Shown here: positions 808-26,370 of the stretch, one piece after another
How positions within the stretch are numbered: the stretch's first letter is position 1
Layout: every line of letters starts with the position of its first letter
Source: Pedosphaera sp.
GTDB lineage: Bacteria; Verrucomicrobiota; Verrucomicrobiia; Limisphaerales; SIBH01
DNA length: 26,471 nt
Reading direction: 5' to 3'
Assembly (NCBI GenBank): GCA_031414955.1
Contig: JANOQV010000167.1
Coordinates: forward strand, 1-26,471
Notes under the pieces: generated by a model
What the model saw: only the letters and a program-made list of their open reading frames with translations
Database searches by the model: none
Told to the model about the DNA's origin: nothing
Position numbers and translations under genes: made by a program

Positions 808-1530
808 TCAGCGCCATTTTCGCCAGCCGATCAAGCTGAGCAGGAAAACGACGACCATCACGAGTGTAAATGTAATCCACATCAACGGTTTGCCACCGGC
901 CCTGCCGGGTCCATAATTTGCCGCAATATCTTCGAAATACTTCTCCACGCGCGCGGGCAGCGGAGGCGGCGGCAAGGGCAAGATTTCGTGCGGAGGCGGT
1001 ATCGGGCCGGGAGGATCAGGAATTTTCTGCCCAGCCGCCCGAAAGATTTCACGCACTTGCTCCTCCGGATACCACTTCACCATCCAGCCGGTGTCGACGA
1101 GATCCGTTTTCGAAATGATCATGCGTCCCAATTTGCCATTCCGATTGGGAAACGCCTCGGCATTGAGCAGGACAATTTCTCCCATGACCGAATTGTTTGT
1201 GAAGCGGGCTGGAACAAACACGTATTTTTCAAAAAGCGAGCTTTTGAAACCAGCGTGCTTTCCATAGGCGCGAAAATATTGGTGGTAGCGTTCGGGATAC
1301 GGCCAATGGGTCGCCACAAAAGCCTGCTGTAGATTAGTAGCCGGGGCGTTTGTAAACTGGCGATCGTGGAACCCCACTACTTTCGCAATGAAACTCGCGC
1401 CATTGTATTCCTCTGAAGTTTGGTCCGGCTTTTCACGGCAGCCAGACGCAAGGGCGCAAAGCAAGCAGGCAAGCCACAGCTTCGCCTGCCTAACCCCGAA
1501 AACCATAGAAATAACTGCTATTCTGCCCAT
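808..1530 (-). CDS. Putative lipoprotein with C-terminal TM anchor; paralog 3 of the tandem (immunity/inhibitor-like) family
   Basis: Start trimmed to ATG 1530 (alternative 1506). Lipobox-like LWLACLLCALASG-C, shared core PATNLQQ...YPERYH..F..YG...GFKSSLFEKY, Pro-rich linker, TM helix and WRKWR tail. Confidence 0.8.
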   Translation of the reverse strand: MGRIAVISMVFGVRQAKLWLACLLCALASGCREKPDQTSEEYNGASFIAKVVGFHDRQFTNAPATNLQQAFVATHWPYPERYHQYFRAYGKHAGFKSSLFEKYVFVPARFTNNSVMGEIVLLNAEAFPNRNGKLGRMIISKTDLVDTGWMVKWYPEEQVREIFRAAGQKIPDPPGPIPPPHEILPLPPPPLPARVEKYFEDIAANYGPGRAGGKPLMWITFTLVMVVVFLLSLIGWRKWR

Positions 1531-1597
1531 TTGGTTGCAGACCGAAAACTGACCCTTTTCTGAGAATCGAAATCGATACAACGCCACAGCCCAATGG

Positions 1598-2719
1598 TTA
1601 CTTCCGGGAAACCGCCGCGAATATAGAGAAGGCAATTGCAAACAGGTGAACCAGCGTCAGAACGATTGCGATCTTGCCGAGGCGATTTCTGATCCATTCG
1701 TAGCACAGCATGAAATCATAAGCACCAATCTGGCCGAGAAGGAGGAACCAGCCAAAAGCGTCTCCCGGCCTTTCCTCGCGGGGCAGTGCTTCCCACCAGG
1801 CGGAATAGGGCAACGAAAGATGAAAGTAAAGCTGCCCCAATCCCCTGTCGCTCCCGAATGAAGGGGACATGAGACCAACCACAAAAAGGAAACCAAACGT
1901 CCATCCAATCACCGAGCAGATCTTTTTTGCGGTCGTCCAGCGTATCGCTGGTGTTGCGTGCTCAACGAGGTGCCGCTTGTAGGGCACGGGCCACAGGCAA
2001 TAGCCGATGATACTGGCACAAACGGCCGCAAGTCCCCAAAAGCAGGCTTTCTCGATGACGCGTGCCATTTGCGGCGAAACTCCCGACCACTCCAGGCGCG
2101 AAAACAATCCGCGCGTCTCAAGCCATGCTGACAAATAATAACGTCTGGCGCTCCGAAAGGTTGTGGGTGGCGGCGCGGGAGGCATTAGTGCTGCGGAGGG
2201 CACTGGGATTCCCACCCTGGCGGTTTGAAAAGCGTCTTGCACCCGATACTCAGCGACTTTTTCTCCCCAGACGTCTCTTTCTCGCTTGTAAAAGATCATT
2301 CGGTACGCGTCGCCCTTGTGGAAGAACGGCTGAGCACTGATCAAATAAGAATCTCCTTTCCCAATGGAGACACCGGGCGGAACCGCAACGTACTTCTCCG
2401 ACAGCGAATTCGAGAAACCAGCGTTTTTCTCATACACGCGGAACCACTCATGCCATTGATATGGATAGCCGCCATGCGATCCGTACAGCACTTGGGCAAG
2501 ATTGGTGATGGGCGTATCAGGAAACTCCGCCGGATACCAAGTAAACCGGCGTGCCAATTCGGGGGCGAAGCGCGACTCCACCTCGCATTGGTCGGACATA
2601 TAGAGGGCGTACGAGCAAATGACGAACACGGCTACGCCGAAGAGAAACCAACCGGGCACCGGGCAGCGGCATTCCCACTCGGGCTCAGACTTGCTGCGAA
2701 ATCCGGGAGGTAAGTTCAC
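1598..2719 (-). CDS. Membrane protein; paralog 2 of the tandem family with an extra C-terminal multi-TM extension
   Basis: GTG start, position uncertain. N-terminal hydrophobic segment, shared core PITNLAQ...YPYQWH..F..Y....GFSNSLSEKY...SAQPF, Pro-rich linker, TM helix, then about 130 aa with roughly 3 more hydrophobic segments. Confidence 0.75.
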   Translation of the reverse strand: MNLPPGFRSKSEPEWECRCPVPGWFLFGVAVFVICSYALYMSDQCEVESRFAPELARRFTWYPAEFPDTPITNLAQVLYGSHGGYPYQWHEWFRVYEKNAGFSNSLSEKYVAVPPGVSIGKGDSYLISAQPFFHKGDAYRMIFYKRERDVWGEKVAEYRVQDAFQTARVGIPVPSAALMPPAPPPTTFRSARRYYLSAWLETRGLFSRLEWSGVSPQMARVIEKACFWGLAAVCASIIGYCLWPVPYKRHLVEHATPAIRWTTAKKICSVIGWTFGFLFVVGLMSPSFGSDRGLGQLYFHLSLPYSAWWEALPREERPGDAFGWFLLLGQIGAYDFMLCYEWIRNRLGKIAIVLTLVHLFAIAFSIFAAVSRK

Positions 2720-2881
2720 GTTTTGAGTTTCGCATTTCCATCGCCAAAAACCAGCGCCGCGCTTTCACAAGTGGTCTGCCCTGCATGTTCTTTCTTCTTT
2801 GTGGTCTGTGCCAAGATGTTGCGGCCTTGGCGAATATGCAATTTCTTGAGGGGCACCCGCGCACTCGCGTGATCACAGTCT

Positions 2882-3580
2882 TCATCTTCCCTTCGCTTTG
2901 GCTACGATTCTTAAAACTGCCCACAACGCCGTGGCCAAAACCGTCAGCCCACTCAAGATGCGGAACAGCCACCGAACCGGCATGGATGACTCCTGTCCCA
3001 AAGCTTCGGATAGATCCCAAACAAACTTTTCGTAACGTTGGCCCAAAGGCGGATGAAGAATGTCTTGGGCTTCAGGTGGCGGCTCCGGCATCGAGAAGGA
3101 AGGAGGCAAAATCACGCTCGATGCCATTTCTCTCGTAATGGCTTGCGCCTTGTTCTCAGAAATTATCCGGTAAAAATAATTGCTCCCACTTCTGGCGATG
3201 TAGATGCGACAGGATTTTTGGTCGCAGTAAAATGGGCGCGCACTCATGCAGGTCAACTCTCCTTCGATCTGAGCGTTCGTGAAACGCGGCCAGAAAAAGA
3301 TGTATTTTTCAGAGAGAGCGTTCGTGAACCCCTTTTTCCGCCCGAACTCCGCAAATTCGGAATGAATGCCGTACGGGTACCCATGTTTCACGAAACGAAA
3401 CAACTGGACCAAATTCGTTGTTGGCACATCGGGTGAATCTACATCATGGAGCTTTAGCAATTTTACGACGTACCCGCCAAGTTTTGACTCGACTGTTGAT
3501 TGATCGCTGATCCTTGAACATCCTGCGAGAACGAAGAAAATCAAGATGTGCAAAAAAAGCTTAGATTTCAAGGTGTCCAT
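2882..3580 (-). CDS. Putative lipoprotein with C-terminal TM anchor; paralog 1 (candidate cognate immunity protein/inhibitor)
   Basis: MDTLKSKLFLHILIFFVLAG-C lipobox; core PTTNLVQ...YPYGIH..F..FG...GFTNALSEKY...SARPF; Pro-rich linker; TM helix plus basic tail. Start overlaps the upstream gene by 13 nt. Confidence 0.85.
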   Translation of the reverse strand: MDTLKSKLFLHILIFFVLAGCSRISDQSTVESKLGGYVVKLLKLHDVDSPDVPTTNLVQLFRFVKHGYPYGIHSEFAEFGRKKGFTNALSEKYIFFWPRFTNAQIEGELTCMSARPFYCDQKSCRIYIARSGSNYFYRIISENKAQAITREMASSVILPPSFSMPEPPPEAQDILHPPLGQRYEKFVWDLSEALGQESSMPVRWLFRILSGLTVLATALWAVLRIVAKAKGR

Positions 3581-6500
3581 TTCAGTGCCGTTCGGAATCT
3601 TATAATCGTGGCAGCGCTAAAGCCTTTCCCGGAAATCGGATCTCCTCCCGTTTGCATTAAGCCTTTTTCAAAATGATCAAGCACACTACCTCCTGGGGCA
3701 TGACCGAGTTCATGTGCCATGGTACCGTATAATCGATTCAAATAGAACTGTTGATAAGTGAGCGCAAAGTGGTTTGTGAACCCGGCTTGATTTACTGAAC
3801 CATCGACACGGTTTATGCCCCATTCCTTGTCGCGATTTCCCTCGATGTAAACCACGCAAAAGCCATGCAGTGGAGAACCGACCAAATCATCCACATTGAT
3901 TCCCAAAAGCACCTCTTCTCGGTCGGGTTCTCCATCTTCGTTCCGTGCGGCCTCGTATCCGACAACAATCGAATACGCCCAGAATTCGGGCCGGTCTTTG
4001 CCTTTCAATTCCAAATTGCCGACATCAAACGGACTGGTGAGGTATCCGACACCTGCTATTCGCTTAAAGGGAATCGTCCGTTGGTTATTTAAGCCCAAAT
4101 CCTTAGCATCTACTGGACGAACATAGGCTTGTGCATAGGCGGACGTGATCGCTCCGATAAATTCTCCACTACGGCTATCGGCGGGAAGAGGTGGAGATTG
4201 CAAGTTCAGGCTTGATGGATACAGGAGATCATTCACGAGGTATTGGTCGTCGTCATCGTAGAGTTTCACCGTCAGTCCCACCAAGTTGTTCGTCGGCACC
4301 GAATCGATCTCCACGTCGGTCATCACGGAGGCGCCCCAACCTGAGATGGATCTGATCGTTCTGAACGCGCCGATGGTCGCAATGTCGATCTTTCCGTTTT
4401 CGAACTGATTCACAGGACTGAATGGAAAGTCCGAATGCAGTATACTAATGCGTGAGCGCCCGACTACGGGATAGTTTCGGCGAACCCGAGTGATCGACCC
4501 ACTGATGAAGTTTGCTTCTGGTCCACTCGCTGGCGGGTTCGTCATTGAATCAAACTCCAAATGCAATTTGCGCCAGACCGTGAGCATCGGTGAAAGCCCG
4601 CCGATGAAGCCCTCGGCCGGTTCCTGGCCGGATCCAACATACATATCCAGCGTGCTGTTCACTTGCAAAGCGTTCAGATGATTGGACGCGCCCGGCAAAT
4701 CCAAGACTGCGGCGACTCTAAAGTTGTCTCCTGGCTGCATGGTCACATCGAAAATAGTCGATGCTTGTCCGAAAACGTCCAGCGTAAGATTCGTTTCGTA
4801 CAGGGTTCCGACGTTCGGGCTGCCGCGGTTGTCGTTTCCCTGGACAAGGATCCCAAAGTCGTTGGTGTCGATGACGCCATCCTCATCATCTGGGAACGGC
4901 GTGGGATCGTCCACGTCGAGCGAGCGCAAGATGACGCGTTGTCCCGGCACCGGAGGAGTGGTCTGGATTTTGACGATCACGCCCTTCCGCGATTCCGTGT
5001 CGGTGGGGCTTAACTGGTCGGGAAAAACACGAAGCCCGCCGCCGGCGTTCGGGTTGTGATCCAACGGCGAGTTTCCCAACAAAAACGTTTCCCAGGTCAC
5101 TTCGATGCGCGGGACGACGAGGGTGCCGATGGAAGCGGCGTTGTTGGTGGGGAAGTCCGCCCAAGGCTTGTTGGTGCCGAGCTTGTTGTTTGGGTCAAGC
5201 ACTAGGAACGCTTGCGGCCCATTTACGCCAGGGCCCAGGCCCGCGGTGTAGGTTTCCGTCGTCGTCGGATTGCCGATGGTGTTCGTGGTGGGCGGCAGCA
5301 CGGCGACCAGTTCCTGGAGGCTGATCGGGTAGCTGTGGCCTTTCTCGTACCAAAAGGTTTTTTCGATGGGCTGCCGGGAGGAGGAGCGGGGATTGAAAAG
5401 CGTGTTGTCGCCGACTTTCAGTTGCGTGGTGTGGCATACCGCGCAGTTCATGCCGTTGTTCACCTTGCCCTTGTCATGCACATAGAGTGAGATCGGCACA
5501 TAATTCTCGGGATGTTCAAGCTGCAGCAGGGTCTGCTGAAGGTCGCTGATGCCATCGCCGTTCGTGTCGGCGAGGCGCGGATTCGTGCCGGCCTGGTATT
5601 CGTCGAAATTGATCAGCCTGTCGACATCACCATCGCGATGACCGTCGTCTCCATTGAGCGGGTCAAGGTTGTGGGCGATTTCCCAGAAGTCGGGCAACCC
5701 GTCCCCATCGGAATCGAAGCCGGGCAGCGTGTTCGGGTCGGCCACGTCCTCGCGCAATTGGACGATCTGCGGGGTGACAGGATCGATGCTGACGTTGGTC
5801 GATGACAGCACCGGACGAACCACCATGGTTTCCCATCCTTCCAAGTAGCCGTCCGCAGAAGCGATGATGTTCGTTTCGACAGCGAGCACATTCAGAGGAA
5901 TCGTAAGCGTGAACGGGGAGACGAGGTTGTGATCGTTGTGATCGATTACCAGCGGGTCGCCCGGTCCCATTGCGTTTCCTGAGTAGGTGAAGGTGGCGGA
6001 GACTGGATCGCTTGCAAACAGTCGCCAGAGCCGGAGCCTCCCGTTCGTAGTCGTGCCCTCGATGGCGACGCTGGAGAGGACTTCCAACCGGACGTATTCC
6101 CATTTCCGCAACAGTTGAATCGGCCAGAGATTTGTGCTGACGGAAGGAACGTGAAAGTGAATCGCTCCAGGGTTGTTGAACCCGGCGGCACCGCCACCCG
6201 TGAAGTAAACGCGAGCCACCGAACTCCGCAGCGGGAACATGATGTAGCCACCGGACACATCGCCGGAGACGCGATAACCCGCGGCCTCCTGAAGGCCCGT
6301 GGTAGTATTGGTGTACACGGCGTAAGGCAGGCTGCCGCCCGCGAAGGTGTGACCAAACCGGCGGATCTCGAAGATCGCGGGCGAATCGATCGCCGGCGAA
6401 GTGCTGTAAACTGAGGCGGACTTCACGGAGGTGATCGTGTACCGCGTAGGCGAATTGTCTTCGAGCAAGACCGTGGCGGCGTTGGTGCCGACAATGTTAA

Positions 6501-8301
6501 ACCCGGCACCGCCACGCAGCGTCACGGTAAACGTTTCGATCATCTCTTCCACGCCATCAGCCAGGGGCTGGATGATCAGATTGGTTTCGCCGACACCCGG
6601 CGGGAAGGTCACGGATTCTGGAATCGCCGGAAAATCCACGCCATTCGTGGCCGATCCAGCGAGGGCAAGATTGACAGTGAGGGGCTGGGCGAGCGAGCCG
6701 CTGCGATTCACCCGAATCACCGCCGAATCAATTCCCTCCGTGGCGGAATCAACGACCACAATAATCGTGACCGCAGGAAGTTCGTCATCCTTGATCACAA
6801 CGCGCGCGGCCGAGCGAACATTGTGGATAGAATACGCTGCGAAGGGATTCGCCAGCGTGAGGATCACGTCCTCATCTCCTTCGTAGGCGGCGTCAAAACT
6901 CGGCGTGATTTCAACCGTCGTCCGGTCGCTTCCCGCCGGGATGTAGGTCCAGGGCGTAATGCCTGTATAATCCACATCGTTTTGCGCGCTGCCCGAGACG
7001 TCAAACCAGACGAGCAGCTGTTGCTCCACGTCTCCGTAGCGCCGGATGAGAAACAGCCCCTTGTTGGTGGCGTTTGCCGTGCTTTCAGCCGCTACAGCAT
7101 CCTCCGCAAAGATCGCCACGACGGGCAGATCGTTGTCGATCAACGAGACGTTCGCGGGGGTGGAATCCAGCACGTAGTTCGTTGCCGAGGCCAGGGAGAG
7201 TTGCACCGTCCGTGGTCGTGTTTGCTGCACGCCGTCGTCCACCGCAGTGACGAAAATGCGTTTGGTCGTTTCACCTGCGAGGAAACTCACTTCGCTCGTG
7301 ATGTAGCCGAACTGGGTCGAGAGCAGGTAATCCGACTCATATCCCGCAGTTCCGCCCAGGTGCAGTACGATGGTAGTGCCGTTCGTTGGCGCTGGAAACG
7401 GCAGCCGGATGTTGAATTCACCGCCGCCTCCGCCTTCGGCTGCCGTGGAATCGACCGTGTAAATCACGGCCCGGGTCAGCCCATGGTACTCGGCCAGGTC
7501 CGGGATGCCGTTCAGATTCGAGTCCTCGTCACCGTCCAGAATCCCGTCGTGATCAGAATCTTCGTCCAGCGGTGAGGTGTGCGAAATCAATGCCTCGAAG
7601 GCATCCGAAAGTCCGTCCCAATCGGAATCGATCGAGTCCGCAGCGCGATAGAAGGCGGTGGCCGAAGCCGTGAGCCACCATTCAAAGTTGGTCTGCCCAA
7701 GCTGGCCAGCGGCGATTCTTTGCCAGGTGCCGTTCGTGCTCAGTTGCAGCTTCTCATAAATCTCGTAGGCACTGTTTGTGTCCGCATCCTGCAACCAGGT
7801 GCTGAAGATGCCTCCTTGAACAATGGGCGCGGGGCCAAACTTCAGTCCGGCATTCGTTGTCCAGCCGCCGAGATAAGATGGCCCATTCGCTTCTCCGCCA
7901 CCGTTCAAGCCTCCTCCCACAGCGAATCCTCCCGGCCCGGATACTGACATCAGGCTCATCCCACCGCCGCCGAGGGAATTCTTCAAGGAGACGTAATCCA
8001 CCTGCGAGTCGTCCACGAGGAAGACGCCCGGCTTCCATTCATACACCGGCAGTTGCCCGAAAGAAGGGTCGAAAGGATACGGCGGTCCCTGCTTGTCTTT
8101 GAGCATGTAGTAGGTGCCCAAGGCCGGCGGATTCATCACTGGTAGAACTAACTCCTCAGGCGGCAGTTTCTGCGCCGACGCGGACGGGGTAAGGCTGAAC
8201 GCAAGGCTTATCCCAACCGCGATTTTGGTGAGCCGGCGGCTGCACATTTCGTTCAGAGTTGCCATGGATTTCGCAAGGCCATGTTGGAAGTGCTTTTTCA
8301 T
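3568..8301 (-). CDS. Large secreted multidomain protein: signal peptide, Asp-rich DxDxDG repeats, several Calx-beta-like domains, C-terminal zincin (HExxH) metallopeptidase-like domain
   Basis: 1577-aa ORF with AAAGGA 9 nt before the ATG and signal peptide ...SLTPSASA-Q. Contains DSDWDGLSDAFE and DSDGDGLPDFWE repeats, Calx-beta-type motifs (AAE...F.I.R.G...L.V...GSA.NGVD...FDAAYEGDEDVILTL...VVIKDDE) and terminal AHELGHAPGGSVLDHFEKGLM. Confidence 0.88.
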   Translation of the reverse strand: MKKHFQHGLAKSMATLNEMCSRRLTKIAVGISLAFSLTPSASAQKLPPEELVLPVMNPPALGTYYMLKDKQGPPYPFDPSFGQLPVYEWKPGVFLVDDSQVDYVSLKNSLGGGGMSLMSVSGPGGFAVGGGLNGGGEANGPSYLGGWTTNAGLKFGPAPIVQGGIFSTWLQDADTNSAYEIYEKLQLSTNGTWQRIAAGQLGQTNFEWWLTASATAFYRAADSIDSDWDGLSDAFEALISHTSPLDEDSDHDGILDGDEDSNLNGIPDLAEYHGLTRAVIYTVDSTAAEGGGGGEFNIRLPFPAPTNGTTIVLHLGGTAGYESDYLLSTQFGYITSEVSFLAGETTKRIFVTAVDDGVQQTRPRTVQLSLASATNYVLDSTPANVSLIDNDLPVVAIFAEDAVAAESTANATNKGLFLIRRYGDVEQQLLVWFDVSGSAQNDVDYTGITPWTYIPAGSDRTTVEITPSFDAAYEGDEDVILTLANPFAAYSIHNVRSAARVVIKDDELPAVTIIVVVDSATEGIDSAVIRVNRSGSLAQPLTVNLALAGSATNGVDFPAIPESVTFPPGVGETNLIIQPLADGVEEMIETFTVTLRGGAGFNIVGTNAATVLLEDNSPTRYTITSVKSASVYSTSPAIDSPAIFEIRRFGHTFAGGSLPYAVYTNTTTGLQEAAGYRVSGDVSGGYIMFPLRSSVARVYFTGGGAAGFNNPGAIHFHVPSVSTNLWPIQLLRKWEYVRLEVLSSVAIEGTTTNGRLRLWRLFASDPVSATFTYSGNAMGPGDPLVIDHNDHNLVSPFTLTIPLNVLAVETNIIASADGYLEGWETMVVRPVLSSTNVSIDPVTPQIVQLREDVADPNTLPGFDSDGDGLPDFWEIAHNLDPLNGDDGHRDGDVDRLINFDEYQAGTNPRLADTNGDGISDLQQTLLQLEHPENYVPISLYVHDKGKVNNGMNCAVCHTTQLKVGDNTLFNPRSSSRQPIEKTFWYEKGHSYPISLQELVAVLPPTTNTIGNPTTTETYTAGLGPGVNGPQAFLVLDPNNKLGTNKPWADFPTNNAASIGTLVVPRIEVTWETFLLGNSPLDHNPNAGGGLRVFPDQLSPTDTESRKGVIVKIQTTPPVPGQRVILRSLDVDDPTPFPDDEDGVIDTNDFGILVQGNDNRGSPNVGTLYETNLTLDVFGQASTIFDVTMQPGDNFRVAAVLDLPGASNHLNALQVNSTLDMYVGSGQEPAEGFIGGLSPMLTVWRKLHLEFDSMTNPPASGPEANFISGSITRVRRNYPVVGRSRISILHSDFPFSPVNQFENGKIDIATIGAFRTIRSISGWGASVMTDVEIDSVPTNNLVGLTVKLYDDDDQYLVNDLLYPSSLNLQSPPLPADSRSGEFIGAITSAYAQAYVRPVDAKDLGLNNQRTIPFKRIAGVGYLTSPFDVGNLELKGKDRPEFWAYSIVVGYEAARNEDGEPDREEVLLGINVDDLVGSPLHGFCVVYIEGNRDKEWGINRVDGSVNQAGFTNHFALTYQQFYLNRLYGTMAHELGHAPGGSVLDHFEKGLMQTGGDPISGKGFSAATIIRFRTALKWTP

Positions 8302-8733: not shown

Positions 8734-9285
8734 TCAGTTATTGATCACGCCCAGGATGCTGGAGCGCGGCACGGGGCCGAAGGCGCGGCTGTCCACGCTG
8801 CGGGCGCGGTTGTCGCCGAGCACGAAGTAGAAGTCGCGCGGGATCACGGTGGCTTTGCCCAAGGGCATCCTGTCCATCAGTCCGGTGGGAGTGGCGGCGT
8901 ACGGTTCGGCCAGCCGGTGGCCGTTGACGAAGGCGGAATCGCTTTGCATCACGATGGTTTCGCAGGGCAGGCCGACGATGCGTTTGACGATGAGGTCGCC
9001 GGTCTCGGGGTCTTTCAAAACGACCATCTCGCCGCGCTGGGGTTCGCGGTGCAGGTAGGCGAAGCGGTTCAGGAGCAGGCGATCACCGGCATGGAGCGTG
9101 GGGAACATGCTGGCTCCCTTGACTTCCACCGCCGTAACCACGACGCGACTGAAGAAAAGATAGCTGATGAAGGAAAAACCCAGGATGAAGGCGAACTTCA
9201 ACAGCGGGTGGCGCCGGGCCTGGGCGGTGGCGGAGAAAAAGGTGGACGGGGTGCTGGTTTTGGTCGCGGCCGTTTCGTTGTTCAT
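8734..9285 (-). CDS. lepB: Signal peptidase I (S26 family)
   Basis: Start trimmed to ATG 9285 (MNNETAA). One TM helix, then catalytic Ser box VKGASMFPTL, Lys box LIVKRIVGLP and box E YFVLGDNRARSVDSRAFGPV. Confidence 0.93.
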   Translation of the reverse strand: MNNETAATKTSTPSTFFSATAQARRHPLLKFAFILGFSFISYLFFSRVVVTAVEVKGASMFPTLHAGDRLLLNRFAYLHREPQRGEMVVLKDPETGDLIVKRIVGLPCETIVMQSDSAFVNGHRLAEPYAATPTGLMDRMPLGKATVIPRDFYFVLGDNRARSVDSRAFGPVPRSSILGVINN

Positions 9286-9308
9286 GCTGTTTCCGTTCAA
9301 CCGTCTGC

Positions 9309-9336
9309 TTGCAAAGATGTTTAAACTCTTTGCCAA
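9309..9336. promoter_or_regulatory. Near-perfect AT-rich palindrome upstream of lepB (candidate operator)
   Basis: ttGCAAAGA-t-GTTTAAAC-TCTTTGCcaa in the DUF362-lepB intergenic gap. Confidence 0.4.
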
Positions 9337-9379
9337 TCCGCAGCAAGGCCCGCTGCTACGGGCCGACAGGTAGGGGAAT

Positions 9380-10462
9380 CTACGGTTTTGGAATCTTGAC
9401 CGTTCGCACTTCGATCCGGCCCGGTTCGGCCACGCCCAACTCCAGCAGGGCCGCATTGTGAAACAGATCCAGATGGTTGGTGTGCGAGGTGAGCGGGCCT
9501 TCAGCACGAGCGCGCTGCGCGTTGATTTCCTGCACGGAAAGCAGGTCGAGCGCGACCGGGTCGGTGCTGAACCGGAGCTGATTCAACTCGATGGAGTGAT
9601 GCAGCCGTCCAATCTGCTCGCCTTCATACTGACAGATGAGCGCATCCACGATGTGCAGGGACACGCGATCTCCGAGGGAGGGCAGGGCGTAGATTTCGGG
9701 AATGGCCTGGGCCAGACGGGGTGCGCTGCCCTCGAATCGGATGGTGTTGTCCACGCTGCCGAGCGCGAGGCTGTAAAGGTTGCCGCAGACCCCGCCAGCA
9801 TAATTGTTGAGCAGCGGAGAGACGTTGATAATCTTCGTGACCTCCTTCGTGAGCAGTCTGGTGACGAAGGACTTGCGCCCGATGCCTTCGCCCTTCTGCT
9901 GGAATTCCAAATCGCCGAAAACCAGTTGGCCGAGGAGGGCTGAGTCGTAGAACGCTTTCTCATCCCAACCGGAATCCATCGCACCAGCCAGCCGCACGCC
10001 GTAATGGCGGGCGACGTCGCTGAAACCGGCGCGGCGCAAATCGGAGAGCAGTTGATCCCAGATGATGATGCGGTTGGTGGGCAGGCCGGCCGCGAGCAGG
10101 CCTTCGATGACGCCCGCGACCACCTCGGGGCGCGTGCCGACGTGGGGGCCAGGGTTGGAATACACTTTGATCCCGACCACGTCTTGGGTGGATACAAATT
10201 TACGCCACGCGGCCGCAACATCGGCCAGGCCGGTGAATTGAGTCAGGCCATGCTGCACCAGGGCGCGCACCACTTCCGGTTTCGGTTTGAAAGCTTCCGT
10301 CGCTGCGTTGTCCTGCACGATGACGACACGCGCGAAGGGGGCTTGAGCAGCGACAGGTGCGGCGTTGAAGGCAAAAGCCACGCCCGCGCGAGCCACGCTG
10401 AGGCTGGCCAGAGCACACGCGAACAGTCGAATCAGCGCGTAAAACAGGGCGTTCCTTGACAC
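9380..10462 (-). CDS. DUF362 domain-containing exported protein
   Basis: Motifs FVSTQDVVGIKV..., TRPEVVAGVIEGL..AG...IIIWD, KIINV, IVDALICQYEG, STDPVALD, preceded by a signal-like N-terminus. Start trimmed to GTG 10462 (uncertain) because the longer ORF overlaps the divergent TPR gene. Confidence 0.8.
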   Translation of the reverse strand: MSRNALFYALIRLFACALASLSVARAGVAFAFNAAPVAAQAPFARVVIVQDNAATEAFKPKPEVVRALVQHGLTQFTGLADVAAAWRKFVSTQDVVGIKVYSNPGPHVGTRPEVVAGVIEGLLAAGLPTNRIIIWDQLLSDLRRAGFSDVARHYGVRLAGAMDSGWDEKAFYDSALLGQLVFGDLEFQQKGEGIGRKSFVTRLLTKEVTKIINVSPLLNNYAGGVCGNLYSLALGSVDNTIRFEGSAPRLAQAIPEIYALPSLGDRVSLHIVDALICQYEGEQIGRLHHSIELNQLRFSTDPVALDLLSVQEINAQRARAEGPLTSHTNHLDLFHNAALLELGVAEPGRIEVRTVKIPKP

Positions 10463-20254: not shown

Positions 20255-20331
20255 CAGGAAACTGAAGCAGGGGAACATCTGAATTGCCTTGCGCATTGCC
20301 AGGGCCGGGCGGGTTTCGTATCACCTTCATC

Positions 20332-23300
20332 ATGCAACCCCACGACCGGTCAGCGCTGGCCCAACAAGTGCGAAAGTTTCCCGGGACCGGTTTAATCTTG
20401 GTGCTGCTGATGGTCGCCGCGGTGCAGCCGGCCTTCGCCTCCCTGATCGCTTATGACAGCGCGGTGAATGCGGACGCGGGCGGCGGGTTGATTCCGCTGG
20501 CCAGGCTGACCAATGCGGCGGTGTTCACGGGCGCGAATCGCGAGGCGTTCAACTTTGGCGCCGGGACAGGTGATGTGACGATGGAGTTCATCCTCACCGG
20601 CGATCCGACCGCGGGCGGCATCAGCAGCTACCTCGCAGTCGGGACGAACGTGTCCAGCAATCTGCGTTACGAGGCTTACAACAACACCGGGCAACTTGGG
20701 TTCACGCAGTTAGGCGTGGCGGATTATCTGTTCTCACCCGGGGTGCCATCGCCGTCGATTCCGGTCCACATCGCCTACGTCTGGTTGTCGGCCACGCGCA
20801 CGATGAAGCTTTATCTCAACGGATCGTTCGCCGGTTCGGCTTCAGGCATCAGTGCGTTGTTTGCCATGCCGAACGGGCAGGGCTGGCTCGGCGGCAATCC
20901 CGGCGGCACGGAGACGATGGTCGGCACGGTTTCCCGCGTGACGGTGTATGGCAGCGTCCTGGCCGACGATGCGATTCAGCGCCACGCGGATGTCTACAAC
21001 GACATCATTCGCGCGCCCATCATCGTTTCATTCACGGCCACGCCGGGAACGATCTTCTCACCGGCTTCCTCCCTGCTGGCTTGGAATGTTCAGAATGCGC
21101 TCGGTGTTTCGGTGAATGGGACGGATGTGACGGGGACGACGAACCTGGTCGTGAATCCCCCGGTGACGACGACCTATTCGCTCGTCGCCACCAACGCGGG
21201 CGGCAGCAGCACGGGGCAGGTGACCGTGGTCGTCAATCCGCCGCCGGTCATCCACCGCTTCACGGCGGGAGCGGGTTACGGGGCCAGCGGCGCGAGCATT
21301 CCTCTGGCGTGGGAGACCAGCCACGGGCAGTCGTTTCAAATTACCCCCGGCGTGGGCGACGTCACGCCGCAGACGATCAGCGGCACCGGCAGTGTCAACA
21401 TCCTGCTCACCCAGACCACGACCTTCACGCTGGCCGTGGGCAACGCCTTCGGCACGAACACCGCGACGCGGTTGGTGCGGGTCGTGCAGCCGGCGAGCCA
21501 CCTGGTCATCTCCGAAGTCATGTCCGACAACGCCTCGACTCTCGCGGATCAGGACGGCGAGTTCCCGGACTGGATCGAAATCTTCAACCCCACCCTCGCC
21601 GCCATCAATCTGGGCGGGCACAGCCTCACCGATGACAAATCGGAACCGACGAAGTGGGTGTTCCCGGATTTGCTGCTGTCGGGGGGCGGGCATCTGGTGG
21701 TGTTTGCCTCGGGCAAGGATCGCACGAACACGGCCGCCCCGCTGCACACCAACTTCCAGCTCGACCGTGACGGTGAGTATCTCGCGTTGATCAGCCCTGG
21801 ACTGGTGATCCTGCACGAGTTCGATCCGTTGCCGCCGCTGGACACGGACATTTCGTTTGGTCTGCTCGGAGGGGACCTGACCACCGCGCAGGCCATGGGA
21901 CATCCCACGCCGGGTGCGCTCAACGACGCCACTCCCGCGCCGCCGGCCAAGGTCGAGTTCTCTCTCGCTGGTGGATTCTTCAGCGAGCCATTTCTGCTCG
22001 CGCTTACGAGTGTCACGAGCGGTGCGGAGATTCGTTACACGCTGGACGGCAGCACTCCGGGCGCGACGAATGGAATTATTTACACGGGGCCGATCGCCAT
22101 CAACGGCACCGCGCGGGTGCGGGCCGTGGCGCGGACGAATGATCTGGAGAGCGCGCTCAGCGGCGAACGCTTCATCAGGCTGGCGGCGGACCTGACCAAC
22201 TACACCACCACACTGCCCATCATGGTGATCGAGAACTTCGGGGCGGGCGTTATTCCGCAGAAGGGCTGGTCGGGCACGGGCGCGGGCATCAAGCAGACTC
22301 CGCGGCACGATGCGGTGTGGGCCACAATTGAGCGGAGCAACGGCCTCGGGGCCTTCACCAATGCGCCGGACATGTTCAGCCGCATCGGCATCCGCGGGCG
22401 CGGCGCGTTTTCGTCCACCTGGCGGCAGAAGCCCTACAGCGTCGAGGCACTCAAGGAAAACGGCGACGAGCGCGACGTCTCACCGCTTGGCCTGCCCGCG
22501 CATCCCGATTGGGTGCTCTACTTCCCCGACCCGGACAGCAACAAGGACCCGGCCATGCTCTTCAATACGTTTGCCTACGAATTGTATCAGCACTTCGGGC
22601 GCGACTTCGCAGTGAAGTTCCGCTGGGTGGAGGCGTTTGTGAACGAGGACGGCGGCGATCTGCAACTCGCCGACCGGCGCGGCGTGTATGCCATCTTCGA
22701 GAAAGTGGCGCGCGGTTCGGACCGCCTGAATTTCCAGAAGCTCTCCGCTGATGGCACGAACGGTGGCTGGCTGCTCAGCTTGAACCGCATGGACCCCGAG
22801 CCGGAGACAGGCTGGCCGGCGGAGAACGGAACCACGGTGCCGCAGTTTTTCCACACCGCCGGGCCGAACCGCATTTCGCAGTCGCCGCCGAACGCGCAAG
22901 TCGTGGGCGACGACGAGCCGCAGCAATCCAACGGCTACCTGAACTTCGATAATCCCAGCGGCTACACCATCAACACCAATCAGCGCGCCGGCATCGAGAA
23001 TTGGTTCAAGCAATTCGAGGACGTGCTTTGGAACAACACGCTCTGGCGCGACCCGACCAACGGCTACCGCAAATATCTCAGCGCCGAGGATTTCGCCGAT
23101 TACTTCCTGCTCAACACCCTCACGCACAATGGCGACGGGCTGCTCATCAGCATGTTCCCGTGGAAGGGCGACGACGGAAGACTCCGCATGGGACCAGCGT
23201 GGGATTACAACTGGAGTCCCTACTACATCGGCGCTCCGACCCCCACCGTCGATCTGCTCTGGCGCCCAACCCGACTCTGGTATGGCCGGCTGTTCACCGA

Positions 23301-26300
23301 CCCGGATTTCCGGCAGCTCTACATTGACCGCTGGTGGGACTATCGGCGCGGCGCGATGAACAACGAGGGTCTGGATGCAATCATCGATGGCCAGGTGGCG
23401 GACATCTCGCCCGTGAAGTCGCTGCTCAATGGCTTTGCCAATACGAACGCTTTTCTCAGCAACATCGCGCAGATGAAGACATGGCTGAAAACCCGCGCCG
23501 ACTGGATCGACGGCAACTACATCCGTCCTCCGGTCTTCAATCAGAACGGTGGCGATGTGCCGGCGGGATTCCAGGTCGTCATCACCGGCACGAACGGCAC
23601 GATCTACTTCACCACCGATGGATCCGATCCCCGCGCGCCGGGTGGGACGAACCTGGCGACTGCGGCGCAGACCTATTCGCTGCCGTTCACGCTTAATGCC
23701 CAGGCCACGGTTAGCGCACGTATCAAGAACGGCACCAACTGGAGTGGTCTCACTCGGGCGGTCTTCTACACGCCGCAGGATCTCAGCAGTCTCGCCATTA
23801 CGGAAATCATGTACAACCCGCCGGCCCTCGGCGGCATTCCCGGCGGCGACTTGGAATTCATCGAGTTGAAGAACACCGGCGTCGTGGCGCTCGACCTCGG
23901 CACGCTCACGTTCACCAACGGAATCACCTTTACCTTCACCAACGGCACCGTGTTATTGCCGGGACAGTTCTTTATGCTGGCGCGCAACGCGGCGGCGTTC
24001 GCCGTGAAGTATCCGGGCGTGACGGTGCATGGCACGTTTGCCGGCCAGCTCGACAATGCTGGTGAAACGCTCCGGCTCGCGACCAGCTTCGGGGCCACCA
24101 TCTTTTCCATCACCTATGGCGACCGCACGCCTTGGGCGCTGGCGGCGGATGGACATGGGTTCTCACTCGTGCCGAGGAACGCAGCGACGAACCTGAATTC
24201 TGACCACGGCGCGCACTGGCGCGCGAGCACAGCTCTCGGCGGCTCGCCCGGCACGGATGATCCTGCGCCGGTCATCGCGCCCGTCCTCATCAACGAAGTG
24301 CTCACGCACACCGACCTTCCGGCGGTGGACTCGATCGAGCTCTTCAATCCCAATGCCACGGAAGTGAACGTGGGTGGCTGGTTCCTGAGTGACGACGGCG
24401 CGGCGCCGAAGAAATTCCGCATTCCCGACGGCACGATGATTGGCGCGGGCGGTTTCCTCGTTTTCACCGAGACGAACTTCAACGCCGTGCCGGGGCTGGT
24501 CACCAGCTTCTCGCTCAGTTCGTCGGGTGATTCGATTTACCTGACCTCCGGCGACGCCAACACCAACCTGACCGGCTACAGCCACGGCTTCGATTTCGGC
24601 GCGGCGGCGAACGGCGTGACCTTTGGCCGCTTCCTAAACAGCGTGGGGGAGGAGCAATTCCCCGCGCAAACCGCGCCGACCCCCGATGCAACCAACGCTG
24701 GTCCGCGTGTCGGCCCGGTGGTCATCAGCGAAATCATGTACAACCCCGAGACGGGCGGGGATGAGTTCGTGGAGTTGAAGAGCCTCAGCGGATTGTCTTT
24801 GAACCTGTTTGACCCGGCCCATCCGACCAACACCTGGCGAATCAATGGTCTCGGCTTCAGTTTCCCGACGAACTTCACGATCGGTTCCAACGAACTGGTT
24901 CTGATTGTTGCGACGAACCCGGCGGCGTTCCGCACCAAGTATGGAGTGCCTGCGGGCGTGCCGATTCTCGGGCCTTACACCGGCAGCTTGCAGGACAGTG
25001 GCGAGCGGCTGGAGTTGCAGTGGCCCGATTCACCTGAGTCGAACGGCGTGCCCTACGTGACCATGGACGAGGTGCGCTACAATGATCGCGCTCCCTGGCC
25101 TCCGGCGGCAGACGGCATCGGGCCGTCGCTGCATCGGGTGGACACGGCCGCTTATGGAAATGATCCCACCAACTGGATGGCGGCCGGTTCCACGCCCGGG
25201 GCGGATTTCATCCCCGGTGGTCCGCCGGTCATCCTCGTCCAGCCCGTGAGCCAGCTCGCACTCATCGGCGGCACGGTGGTCTTCAGCGTGAGCAGCACGG
25301 GTGCGCCGCCGCTTCTCCACCGCTGGCTGTTTAACGACCGTGTCATTCCTGGCGCGAACGGCAGCACGTTGACCCTGACGAATCTTCAACCGGCGCAGGC
25401 GGGTCTTTACAGCGTGGCGATCTACAACAGCGGCGGCGCCGTGGTCAGCGCGGCGGCGACACTCTCTGTGTTGACGCCGGTGTATTTCACCGTGCAGCCG
25501 ACCAACCAGAACGTGCTCCCCGGCACCAACGTCACCCTCGTCTCCGCCGCCAACGGCAACGGCCCCGTTCGTTACCAATGGCAGTTCGAGGGCACGAACC
25601 TGCCCAATGCCACCAACGCCAGCTTCAGCTTCAGCAACGCCTCGCTGGCTTTCGGCCACGGGAATTTTTCCGTCGCCGCGCAGGATGATGCGAGCACGGC
25701 GACCAGCAGCAATGCTTTCGTCTTCGTCCGCATCCGCCCCGGCATCACTCTCCAGCCGCTGGCGCAATCCGTGGTGCAAGGCAACAACGCCTTGTTCATC
25801 TGCGTGGCCACCGGCGCGCCGCCCATTGTTTTCCGCTGGCTGACCAACGGCGTGGGCATGGTCACGAACACCAGCGGGATCTTTGTCTTCAACAATGTGC
25901 AGAGCAGCATGACCGTGCGGGCCGTCGTCCAGAACCTGGCCGGCAGCGTGAACAGCAGTACGGTGAATCTGACCATGCAGCGCGATTTTGATGGCGACGG
26001 CATGGCGGACTTTTGGGAGACGAACTACTTCGGCTTCAGCACCAACAACCCGGCCGACGGCCCGCTCGATTTTGACGGCGACGGCCTGAGCAACTCAGAC
26101 GAGTTTCGCGCCGGGACCAATCCCACCAACGCGTTCAGCGTGTTGCGTCTCGCGCCGTCGGCGACGAACGCGAACGTCCTTGAGTTTGTGGCGCAGACGA
26201 ACCGGACTTACACCGTGCTCGGCCGGACGAATCTGACCGGCGCGGCCTGGACGGGCGTGACCAACGTGCTGCCTTCGACTGCGGTGCGAACCGTGCTGCT

Positions 26301-26370
26301 GGACTCCGCAGTGTGGCCGGTGGCGAACCCCGAGCGCTACTACCGGGTAATCACCCCGTTTATACCTTAG
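20332..26370 (+). CDS. Large exported CotH-family kinase protein with LamG-like, lamin-tail (LTD), FN3-associated/chitobiase C-terminal and Ig-like domains
   Basis: Start trimmed to ATG 20332; signal ...VQPAFA-S. LTD motifs LVISEVM..N..DWIEIFN, AITEIMYNP..LEFIELKN, VLINEV..DSIELFN, VVISEIMYNP..EFVELK. IRYTLDGSTP and IYFTTDGSDP. CotH motifs IGIRGRG..S..KPY, RWVEAFVN..GVY..FEKV, MGPAWDYN. Ig motifs PVILVQPVSQ..W..N. DFDGDG repeats near the C-terminus. Confidence 0.92.
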   Translation: MQPHDRSALAQQVRKFPGTGLILVLLMVAAVQPAFASLIAYDSAVNADAGGGLIPLARLTNAAVFTGANREAFNFGAGTGDVTMEFILTGDPTAGGISSYLAVGTNVSSNLRYEAYNNTGQLGFTQLGVADYLFSPGVPSPSIPVHIAYVWLSATRTMKLYLNGSFAGSASGISALFAMPNGQGWLGGNPGGTETMVGTVSRVTVYGSVLADDAIQRHADVYNDIIRAPIIVSFTATPGTIFSPASSLLAWNVQNALGVSVNGTDVTGTTNLVVNPPVTTTYSLVATNAGGSSTGQVTVVVNPPPVIHRFTAGAGYGASGASIPLAWETSHGQSFQITPGVGDVTPQTISGTGSVNILLTQTTTFTLAVGNAFGTNTATRLVRVVQPASHLVISEVMSDNASTLADQDGEFPDWIEIFNPTLAAINLGGHSLTDDKSEPTKWVFPDLLLSGGGHLVVFASGKDRTNTAAPLHTNFQLDRDGEYLALISPGLVILHEFDPLPPLDTDISFGLLGGDLTTAQAMGHPTPGALNDATPAPPAKVEFSLAGGFFSEPFLLALTSVTSGAEIRYTLDGSTPGATNGIIYTGPIAINGTARVRAVARTNDLESALSGERFIRLAADLTNYTTTLPIMVIENFGAGVIPQKGWSGTGAGIKQTPRHDAVWATIERSNGLGAFTNAPDMFSRIGIRGRGAFSSTWRQKPYSVEALKENGDERDVSPLGLPAHPDWVLYFPDPDSNKDPAMLFNTFAYELYQHFGRDFAVKFRWVEAFVNEDGGDLQLADRRGVYAIFEKVARGSDRLNFQKLSADGTNGGWLLSLNRMDPEPETGWPAENGTTVPQFFHTAGPNRISQSPPNAQVVGDDEPQQSNGYLNFDNPSGYTINTNQRAGIENWFKQFEDVLWNNTLWRDPTNGYRKYLSAEDFADYFLLNTLTHNGDGLLISMFPWKGDDGRLRMGPAWDYNWSPYYIGAPTPTVDLLWRPTRLWYGRLFTDPDFRQLYIDRWWDYRRGAMNNEGLDAIIDGQVADISPVKSLLNGFANTNAFLSNIAQMKTWLKTRADWIDGNYIRPPVFNQNGGDVPAGFQVVITGTNGTIYFTTDGSDPRAPGGTNLATAAQTYSLPFTLNAQATVSARIKNGTNWSGLTRAVFYTPQDLSSLAITEIMYNPPALGGIPGGDLEFIELKNTGVVALDLGTLTFTNGITFTFTNGTVLLPGQFFMLARNAAAFAVKYPGVTVHGTFAGQLDNAGETLRLATSFGATIFSITYGDRTPWALAADGHGFSLVPRNAATNLNSDHGAHWRASTALGGSPGTDDPAPVIAPVLINEVLTHTDLPAVDSIELFNPNATEVNVGGWFLSDDGAAPKKFRIPDGTMIGAGGFLVFTETNFNAVPGLVTSFSLSSSGDSIYLTSGDANTNLTGYSHGFDFGAAANGVTFGRFLNSVGEEQFPAQTAPTPDATNAGPRVGPVVISEIMYNPETGGDEFVELKSLSGLSLNLFDPAHPTNTWRINGLGFSFPTNFTIGSNELVLIVATNPAAFRTKYGVPAGVPILGPYTGSLQDSGERLELQWPDSPESNGVPYVTMDEVRYNDRAPWPPAADGIGPSLHRVDTAAYGNDPTNWMAAGSTPGADFIPGGPPVILVQPVSQLALIGGTVVFSVSSTGAPPLLHRWLFNDRVIPGANGSTLTLTNLQPAQAGLYSVAIYNSGGAVVSAAATLSVLTPVYFTVQPTNQNVLPGTNVTLVSAANGNGPVRYQWQFEGTNLPNATNASFSFSNASLAFGHGNFSVAAQDDASTATSSNAFVFVRIRPGITLQPLAQSVVQGNNALFICVATGAPPIVFRWLTNGVGMVTNTSGIFVFNNVQSSMTVRAVVQNLAGSVNSSTVNLTMQRDFDGDGMADFWETNYFGFSTNNPADGPLDFDGDGLSNSDEFRAGTNPTNAFSVLRLAPSATNANVLEFVAQTNRTYTVLGRTNLTGAAWTGVTNVLPSTAVRTVLLDSAVWPVANPERYYRVITPFIP

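Follow-up and report, generated by a model that had tools for sequence, protein, structure and literature searches.

A metzincin gene coupled to a family of envelope-anchored partners in a Pedosphaera genome: a candidate protease/immunity system with polymorphic-toxin-like genetics

We have analysed a stretch of 26,471 nucleotides from Pedosphaera sp. (GenBank assembly GCA_031414955.1, contig JANOQV010000167.1, positions 1 to 26,471; hereafter the window), in which a gene for a long exported protein is followed by three genes for membrane-anchored proteins. An earlier note, made from the letters of the window, had proposed a new polymorphic toxin or poly-immunity system here. Four open reading frames (ORFs) lie on the minus strand at 8301-3568, 3580-2882, 2719-1598 and 1641-808, and their products are called P0001 to P0004. 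P0001 (3568-8301) is, as the note described, an exported protein of 1577 residues ending in HELGH..H..GLM; it consists of a signal peptide, an N-terminal module, DxDxDG repeats, Calx-beta repeats, a linker, an immunoglobulin-like (Ig) domain and a metzincin domain. Its stop codon overlaps the ATG of the lipoprotein gene P0002 by 13 nt, again as described. P0002, P0003 and P0004 are mutually paralogous (27-36% identity, E 1e-15 to 6e-27), and no further copy of the three was found elsewhere in the 6.5-Mb genome. The paralogy proposed earlier stands, with probable corrections to two of the gene starts. P0003 probably begins at GTG 2659 (its ORF is open from 2719), as in the near-identical database copy P0112. 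The start of P0004 is most likely the ATG at 1530 rather than 1641, because that ATG overlaps a zincin-tip remnant (described below) by 13 nt. In an independent assembly a single contig spans 408-9775 with zero differences (that run is possibly the window's own source sample). In a second study the locus is represented only by short contig pieces at low depth, and strain-level exchange of tips is consequently not visible there. The closest named homologs of the locus belong to Verrucomicrobiota.

The C-terminal module of P0001 (residues 1068-1577) was modelled from 115 sequences with a predicted local distance difference test score (pLDDT) of 91 and a predicted template modelling score of 0.91. 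The model has three parts: an intimin-like Ig domain, a metzincin core and, inserted in the core behind its first catalytic strand, a beta-barrel. The conserved Ig domain (4570-5100, minus strand as throughout the locus), of intimin/Big-1 type, is placed by the model and by invariant columns (motifs DVDDP, DNRG and QPGDN) and matches intimin at Z 8.3-8.4, with a root-mean-square deviation (rmsd) of 2.1-2.2 over 87-90 aligned residues. Structural matches likewise delimit the catalytic domain (residues ~1241-1577, 3571-4581; inserted barrel ~1257-1350), which aligns with ulilysin at Z 10.8 (rmsd 3.2, 169 aligned) and with ADAM17, mirolysin and archaemetzincin, tied at Z 10.5. The single HExxH of P0001 is the HELGH at residues 1530-1534 (3714-3700); alignment columns extend this active-site region to 3655-3714, with H1543 as probable third ligand and M1549 of GLM as the Met-turn. 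H1530, E1531 and H1534 are invariant in all 90 members scanned out of the 115 aligned sequences, and Met1549 is kept in at least 90%. The spacing to the third histidine varies: of 152 tips, 41 have the canonical 5 and 33 have no later histidine in range; in P0001 it is 8. As modelled, the P0001 catalytic domain has the metzincin fold together with the HExxH and Met-turn signature, and zinc-dependent proteolysis is predicted. The sequence itself lies far from described families. The family profile gave weak archaemetzincin matches among PDB sequences (E 0.008); reprolysin-type Pfam models matched weakly in at most 12 of the 90 aligned members, and NCBIfam families in at most 3 members each, again weakly. 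Pfam models of Tox-MPTase2-5 and M91 matched none of the 90 at E<=0.01, and the P0001 module had no Pfam or NCBIfam match at that threshold. Foldseek against PDB returned only Ig-type matches with poor TM-scores for the module, and ESM Atlas gave scores of at most 0.85, which are leads only.

P0002 (2882-3580; 232 residues) carries a lipobox, LAG-C21, and shares its architecture with P0004 (808-1530; 240 residues, lipobox ASG-C31): lipoprotein signal, globular domain, proline-rich linker and a C-terminal hydrophobic membrane helix with a basic tail. P0003 (1598-2659, bounded from its sequence and the P0112 copy) is anchored at its N-terminus and has additional membrane helices in an extra C-terminal multi-pass domain. 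In the closest zincin homologs it is the P0002 subfamily that directly follows the zincin. The alpha/beta globular domain of P0002 was modelled (pLDDT 92) as a long helix with a beta-meander. Its matches to pilins are weak and do not stand out (PilA4: Z 5.2, rmsd 4.0, 94 aligned; PulG: Z 4.2, rmsd 3.1, 83 aligned). For the partner, Foldseek found no PDB match at E<=0.001, ESM Atlas gave no usable match, and comparison of its profile with PDB sequences gave nothing meaningful; a profile built from three partner sequences matched none of 60 relatives. When the catalytic domain (module residues 170-510) was co-folded with the globular domain of P0002, in a run without controls, the score was 0.00, and we count this neither way.

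The history of the locus can be read in part from a sequence remnant. A matrix built from 29 homolog C-termini was scanned over 13.07 million genome positions. Its best hit was the real P0001 tip (34.4 bits), the second (28.0 bits) was an unrelated place, and the third (26.9 bits) was a stretch of ten codons and a stop at 1550-1518, immediately before P0004. The overlap between this remnant of another zincin's C-terminus and the ATG at 1530 is 13 nt, the same as that in the P0001/P0002 pair; this indicates that P0004 was once the cognate of another, lost zincin. The earlier proposal of one cognate and two orphan partners is thus directly supported. A tip remnant before P0003 was looked for and not found. 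Just past the P0004 stop is a second, apparently decayed remnant copy (802-769, ATG at 781), recognised from a weak alignment (87.5% over 24 nt, E 0.068; matrix score 7.5) and weak by itself. A fourth partner behind this second remnant was considered and rejected, there being no partner-profile match in any frame of 1-860. Elsewhere in the family, tip remnants also precede the second partners in L096, L117 and, in a shorter form, L095.

The module belongs to a large family. Its profile retrieved 1,736 clusters (50% identity) at E<=1e-30 among 1.84 billion representatives, from soil and sediment bacteria of the Verrucomicrobiota, Acidobacteriota and Planctomycetota. Judged by sequence, this is a large metzincin family that has neither a name nor a model of its own, and the suggestion that the system is of a Verrucomicrobia type has to be withdrawn. 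Our set comprised the top 80 among 178 candidates from genomes, the top 80 among 345 from metagenomes (79 loci) and nine loci from a search of the order, one of them the window's. Of 152 non-redundant complete tips, eight were dropped (four had long C-terminal tails and the rest less than 450 nt of flank). HExxH is present in 143 of the remaining 144. A same-strand gene starts within 60 nt of 140 of these tips, with 60 overlapping or abutting, and in 134 of the 144 the coupled gene is exported-looking and at most 450 residues long. By the same rules, such a neighbour was found for only 31 of 286 long exported genes in the window's genome. Conserved neighbour genes, including secretion genes, were not found around the loci, the largest neighbour cluster spanning 6 of 159; since neighbours differ between loci, the system appears to be inserted at varied sites. 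Its occurrence is patchy: the module was detected in no genome out of 11 of the same genus, in 10 out of 400 at the level of the order (two of these are weak matches to other zincins) and in 7 out of 400 at that of the phylum, many assemblies being incomplete. No module relative was confirmed in 25 candidate stretches of viral contigs, and none was found in plasmid records.

The 140 partners fall, by our own clustering, into several unrelated families: type A (46, including the window locus; Verrucomicrobiota where named), type B (73; Ig-like domains, recognised by eye, with TPR-like repeats, mostly in Acidobacteriota and Planctomycetota), type C (10), type D (4; HEAT repeats) and others (7). 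Type C is pseudopilin-like: Pfam T2SSG scored above cut-off in 3 of 5 core members scanned, while a sixth, looser member had no match. T2SSG matched none of 44 type A members, and profile comparison of types A and C detected no homology. Genes resembling type C also occur in the window's genome, at C216:6533-7237 and C204:11238-11954 (E ~1e-29), in housekeeping operons with no zincin nearby. One 442-residue partner (L112:9384-10709) fuses type A and type B domains, in a poly-immunity-like arrangement. The partner family does occur apart from zincins, as the earlier note had considered, in distant members and to a limited extent. Matches to a broad type A profile occurred in 28 of 400 other genomes, and ten reached E<=3e-12; six of these ten strong matches stand beside a zincin and four do not. 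The four are three solo genes and one fragment that follows a different enzyme/partner-like pair, and the zincin profile gave no match in their genomes. The remaining 18 matches were weak and involved mostly the linker and membrane helix. At L182 (G324:C20:87341-90703) a type A partner fragment lies behind an unrelated enzyme C-terminus, which we take to be hydrolase-like, and an exported protein; this suggests a second tip/partner system sharing insertion sites.

Further copies of tips and partners beyond the first pair point to movement as a unit. We considered 78 loci in which at least 1.5 kb of sequence follows the first partner; within 3 kb, another zincin piece is seen at 13, another partner at 15 and at least one of the two at 18. 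Four of the 13 zincin pieces (L088, L097, L119, L151) are long or full second copies, not short orphans; clear orphan tips are seen in L026, L028, L052, L073, L117 and L126, the last with two. Split zincins read in two ORFs (e.g. L039, L055, L067, L098, L104, L161, L169) were treated as frameshifts or assembly errors and left out of the orphan cassettes. The type A1 pair of L096 has behind it a short P0001-like tip and a partner of the P0002 subfamily, and in L221 a trunk-less tip with its partner stands behind a gene that is presumably transposase-like. At four loci (L052, L058, L083, L097) 128-401 nt of trunk recur in the downstream cassette at 81-91% identity, and these repeated stretches could serve as recombination arms.

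Tip and partner also vary together. Trees were compared for one set of 116 proteins: partner community changes 24 times on the catalytic-tip tree and 45 times on that of the Ig domain (minimum 20, shuffled ~79), and at the level of partner type the changes number 8 and 15, respectively. In type B the partial correlation of partner with tip is 0.57 as against 0.11 with trunk. Accordingly, the expectation of the earlier note that C-termini and downstream genes vary together was right in that the partner follows the catalytic tip, but the C-termini keep the same fold and it is the N-termini that differ most. Identity to P0001 is mosaic: P0018 has 75% in the linker and 32-39% in the last catalytic segments, compared with 53% and 60-68% for P0005. 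Base composition changes at the same place. GC content at third codon positions (GC3) in P0001, counted per 100 codons, is 0.65-0.79 up to residue 1200 and then 0.61, 0.61, 0.53 and 0.38 toward the end. GC3 is lower in tip than trunk at 72 of 82 loci versus 150 of 286 controls; a drop of at least 0.25 occurs in 5 of the 286 controls, and the window locus falls from 0.74 to 0.44. We read the co-variation of tip and partner as a sign of travelling together, not as proof of binding.

The trunk is less uniform. P0001 starts with a Sec-type signal peptide (residues 1-43, 8173-8301; read from the sequence, with the true start maybe at M13 or M19), and its homologs also have hydrophobic leaders. The N-terminal module (residues ~44-225, 7627-8172) is common to three other ORFs of the genome (C292:27747-28628, C100:5511-7196 and C100:8621-12460) and may be a shared export or display module. 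The C292 ORF, of 293 residues, lies directly upstream of a 1993-residue gene, Rhs-like by eye, which is itself followed by a small ORF. Within this module, P0001 residues 135-220 (~7640-7900) gave a weak single-sequence match (E 4e-4) to a profile made from the C-terminal 95 residues of 144 genome ORFs ending F/Y-F/Y-R, such as the 2028-residue ORF at 20284-26370; possibly a Verrucomicrobial sorting domain has been relocated to the N-terminus. In the Calx-beta region (residues ~278-860, 5722-7470) two stretches pass Pfam (E 3e-17), as the earlier description implied, and the rest was assigned by eye; TSP3_bac was sub-threshold. That description was also correct in finding no Rhs/YD, haemagglutinin, VgrG, PAAR or LXG features, none of these families being matched in P0001 by Pfam at E<=0.1. 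The 25 long homologs scanned likewise had no Rhs or haemagglutinin repeats and no VgrG, PAAR or LXG trunk, and their N-termini are diverse, with Calx-beta, RTX, LamG, FG-GAP, CBM and transglutaminase domains. The linker (residues 926-1067, 5101-5526) contains a CAVCH motif (5420-5445), also present in P0260, that resembles a haem c attachment site and could alternatively be a disulphide or metal site. Upstream of P0001 the neighbouring gene encodes signal peptidase I (8734-9507, minus strand). Downstream of the locus, at 408-682, is a G-rich repeated stretch, with more copies in the same samples (a second contig, 34 differences), which may be a small mobile or palindromic repeat.

From the export signal, the intact metzincin, its coupling to a partner gene, the exchange of cassettes and the orphan partners, we predict a protease/immunity system with polymorphic-toxin genetics that acts on the envelope of related bacteria, and we give this reading a probability of roughly 0.6. 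As sequence comparison shows, the catalytic tip and its partner move as a cassette, and such cassettes replace one another at the 3' end of the zincin gene and leave strings of orphan tips and partners. In the window, P0002 is the current cognate, P0004 a former cognate that keeps the last codons of the old zincin, and P0003 a further displaced partner. The enzyme would leave the cell via Sec, the calcium-binding trunk would hold it at or aim it toward surfaces, and it would then cut envelope proteins of neighbouring cells, by a route across outer membranes that the reading has to assume. The envelope-anchored partner, facing the periplasm, would bind and block the matching variant, while orphan partners may guard against variants of other strains. 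The genetic side of this reading is strong, whereas we infer the biochemistry.

Several observations weigh against it. Among 243 homologs found with the C-terminal module, 235 end in an intact metzincin and none in another fold; of the eight exceptions, two are fusions to a partner, one has an Ig extension and five have ends that are truncated or diverged. A search from the trunk side, with the linker, had a small reach (its 10 other proteins were nine members of the metzincin family and one partial protein) and found no alternative tip among them. No extra cassette is seen at 60 of the 78 loci, and no delivery route into a target periplasm is evident. In type A, the group of the window locus, the partial correlations with tip (0.31) and trunk (0.28) are not separated. 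Tip and partner are adjacent on the DNA, so linkage alone could cause co-variation, and kin are not independent. Finally, in four proteins (P0055, P0059, L046, L123) a zincin and a type B partner are joined as a single polypeptide, an arrangement not readily expected of a simple inhibitor. The polymorphic-toxin layout proposed earlier is therefore recognisable in the coupling, the orphan cassettes, the co-variation of tip and partner, the GC drop and the patchiness, but not in the tip fold, which is constant. The best reading of these sequences is that variation lies in specificity inside one protease family rather than in toxin class.

The constant tip fold would also suit a protease used in foraging or in remodelling surfaces, with an inhibitor dedicated to protecting the envelope of the producer itself; any extra partners would be harmless leftovers. 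The varied adhesin and sugar-binding N-termini (Calx-beta, RTX, LamG, CBM, FG-GAP) are like those of nutrient-scavenging enzymes, and potempins, as their description states, are membrane-anchored lipoproteins encoded by genes linked to those of the peptidases; their folds are distinct, and each inhibits its own peptidase specifically (PMC9890683). Nevertheless, self-protection alone fails to predict the repeated replacement of tip with partner, the orphan tip cassettes and the low-GC tip, nor does it predict that orphan partners stay intact or that solo partners occur in genomes without a detected zincin. We regard it as unlikely.

Still less probable, in our judgement, is a role in recognition or signalling, in which the partner would be the cognate substrate or receptor of the protease and matched pairs would mark self and non-self without killing. 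The TraA/TraB and IdsD/IdsE pairs are comparable in role. Strict one-to-one co-variation suits any matched pair, and zincin-partner fusions would fit as well. The pseudopilin-like type C partners and the weak pilin matches of the type A model are compatible with this role, both types being located in the envelope. Yet it would be easier to recruit partners of such unrelated folds (pilin-like, Ig with TPR, HEAT, small membrane proteins) as blockers than as signalling components; the intracellular part of type A partners is no more than a short basic tail, and a signalling gene is never a conserved neighbour.

The same pilin resemblance permits a more specific and highly speculative form of the protease/immunity reading, which we would put slightly lower again. 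One protease scaffold, diversified by cassette exchange, would cut pilin-fold envelope proteins of rivals (type IV pilins or secretion pseudopilins) in kin competition, and immunity would have been recruited repeatedly from substrate look-alikes. Look-alikes are suggested because type C is pseudopilin-like and has resident relatives in housekeeping operons of this genome; type A may be an independent pilin-fold decoy. Least plausible is that the partner acts in trans as a folding chaperone, activator or export adaptor replacing a pro-domain: no pro-domain was recognised in P0001, either in the model or by Pfam, and the fusions put a type B domain in cis, but orphan and solo partners and the several paralogs behind one enzyme would be left unexplained.

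Soils and sediments are rich in Acidobacteriota, Verrucomicrobiota and Planctomycetota, and fighting and kin recognition in these phyla are poorly known. The window locus supplies, at one place, a matched enzyme/partner pair together with natural mismatched controls, and specificity is thereby directly testable. Should the protease/immunity reading be true, it would describe a toxin class that varies by specificity inside one protease fold, and would add at least four unrelated candidate folds of metzincin inhibitor; the new inhibitor families would stand under the self-protection reading as well. In a literature search of titles and opening abstracts, with subscription papers mostly outside it, no description of this metzincin/partner family was found, and the supplement of one survey (PMC3482391) may list members.

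The closest genetic parallels are the Rhs and contact-dependent inhibition (CDI) polymorphic toxins. As outlined by Zhang et al. 2012 (PMC3482391), in such systems the toxin gene precedes the immunity gene, cassettes move as pairs, and strings of immunity genes are remnants of tip replacement. The present loci share with them gene order, gene overlap, stand-alone tip cassettes, immunity strings and patchy spread, as far as that account goes (PMC3482391). In contrast, no Rhs, filamentous haemagglutinin, type VI or type VII secretion trunk and no processing peptidase were recognised in the P0001 family, and its tip is always the same metzincin; here the C-terminal Ig and catalytic module is conserved and the N-terminus variable, and the partners are exported rather than cytoplasmic. 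Judged by sequence features, the locus behaves like a polymorphic toxin system, but different toxins on one trunk were not found, and it is not a member of the Rhs, CDI or Tox-MPTase groups.

Among known toxins with zincin tips, the five Tox-MPTase families comprise small zincins, usually carried by Rhs trunks, for which the main account lists no immunity protein (PMC3482391), and antibacterial activity has been reported for the M91 domain of Salmonella SED_RS06335 (PMC13556075). Taken together, these toxins, as far as the two sources describe them, resemble P0001 in having a C-terminal HExxH zincin and a neighbouring immunity gene (PMC3482391, PMC13556075). The P0001 tip differs from what is described there in being a 340-residue metzincin with a Met-turn and an inserted beta-barrel, and in that none of 90 members of its family matches a Tox-MPTase or M91 model of Pfam. 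Among metzincins with gene-linked inhibitors, the KLIKK peptidases of Tannerella forsythia are secreted, some are metzincins, and each has a gene-linked, membrane-anchored lipoprotein inhibitor; according to the abstract, the potempin genes lie upstream and encode beta-barrels of 98-132 residues (PMC9890683). The partners described here are instead downstream, mostly of 200-400 residues and of other folds (P0002: 232 residues, long helix with beta-meander), and the abstract of that study mentions no cassette exchange (PMC9890683). The best fold matches of the P0001 catalytic domain, which are tied, include mirolysin and ulilysin.

The serralysin/AprI arrangement also has an exported metzincin followed by a gene for a periplasmic inhibitor, as one fixed pair with a type I secretion operon. 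The window family differs in having no conserved secretion genes and many partner families. In its catalytic fold, its HExxH with a third His or Asp, and its Met-turn, the P0001 domain is like pappalysin/ulilysin (M43), ADAM/reprolysin (M12B) and archaemetzincin (M54); it differs from these in sharing 11-19% identity over the aligned core and in the Ig domain and beta-barrel insertion, which are unique to the P0001 family.

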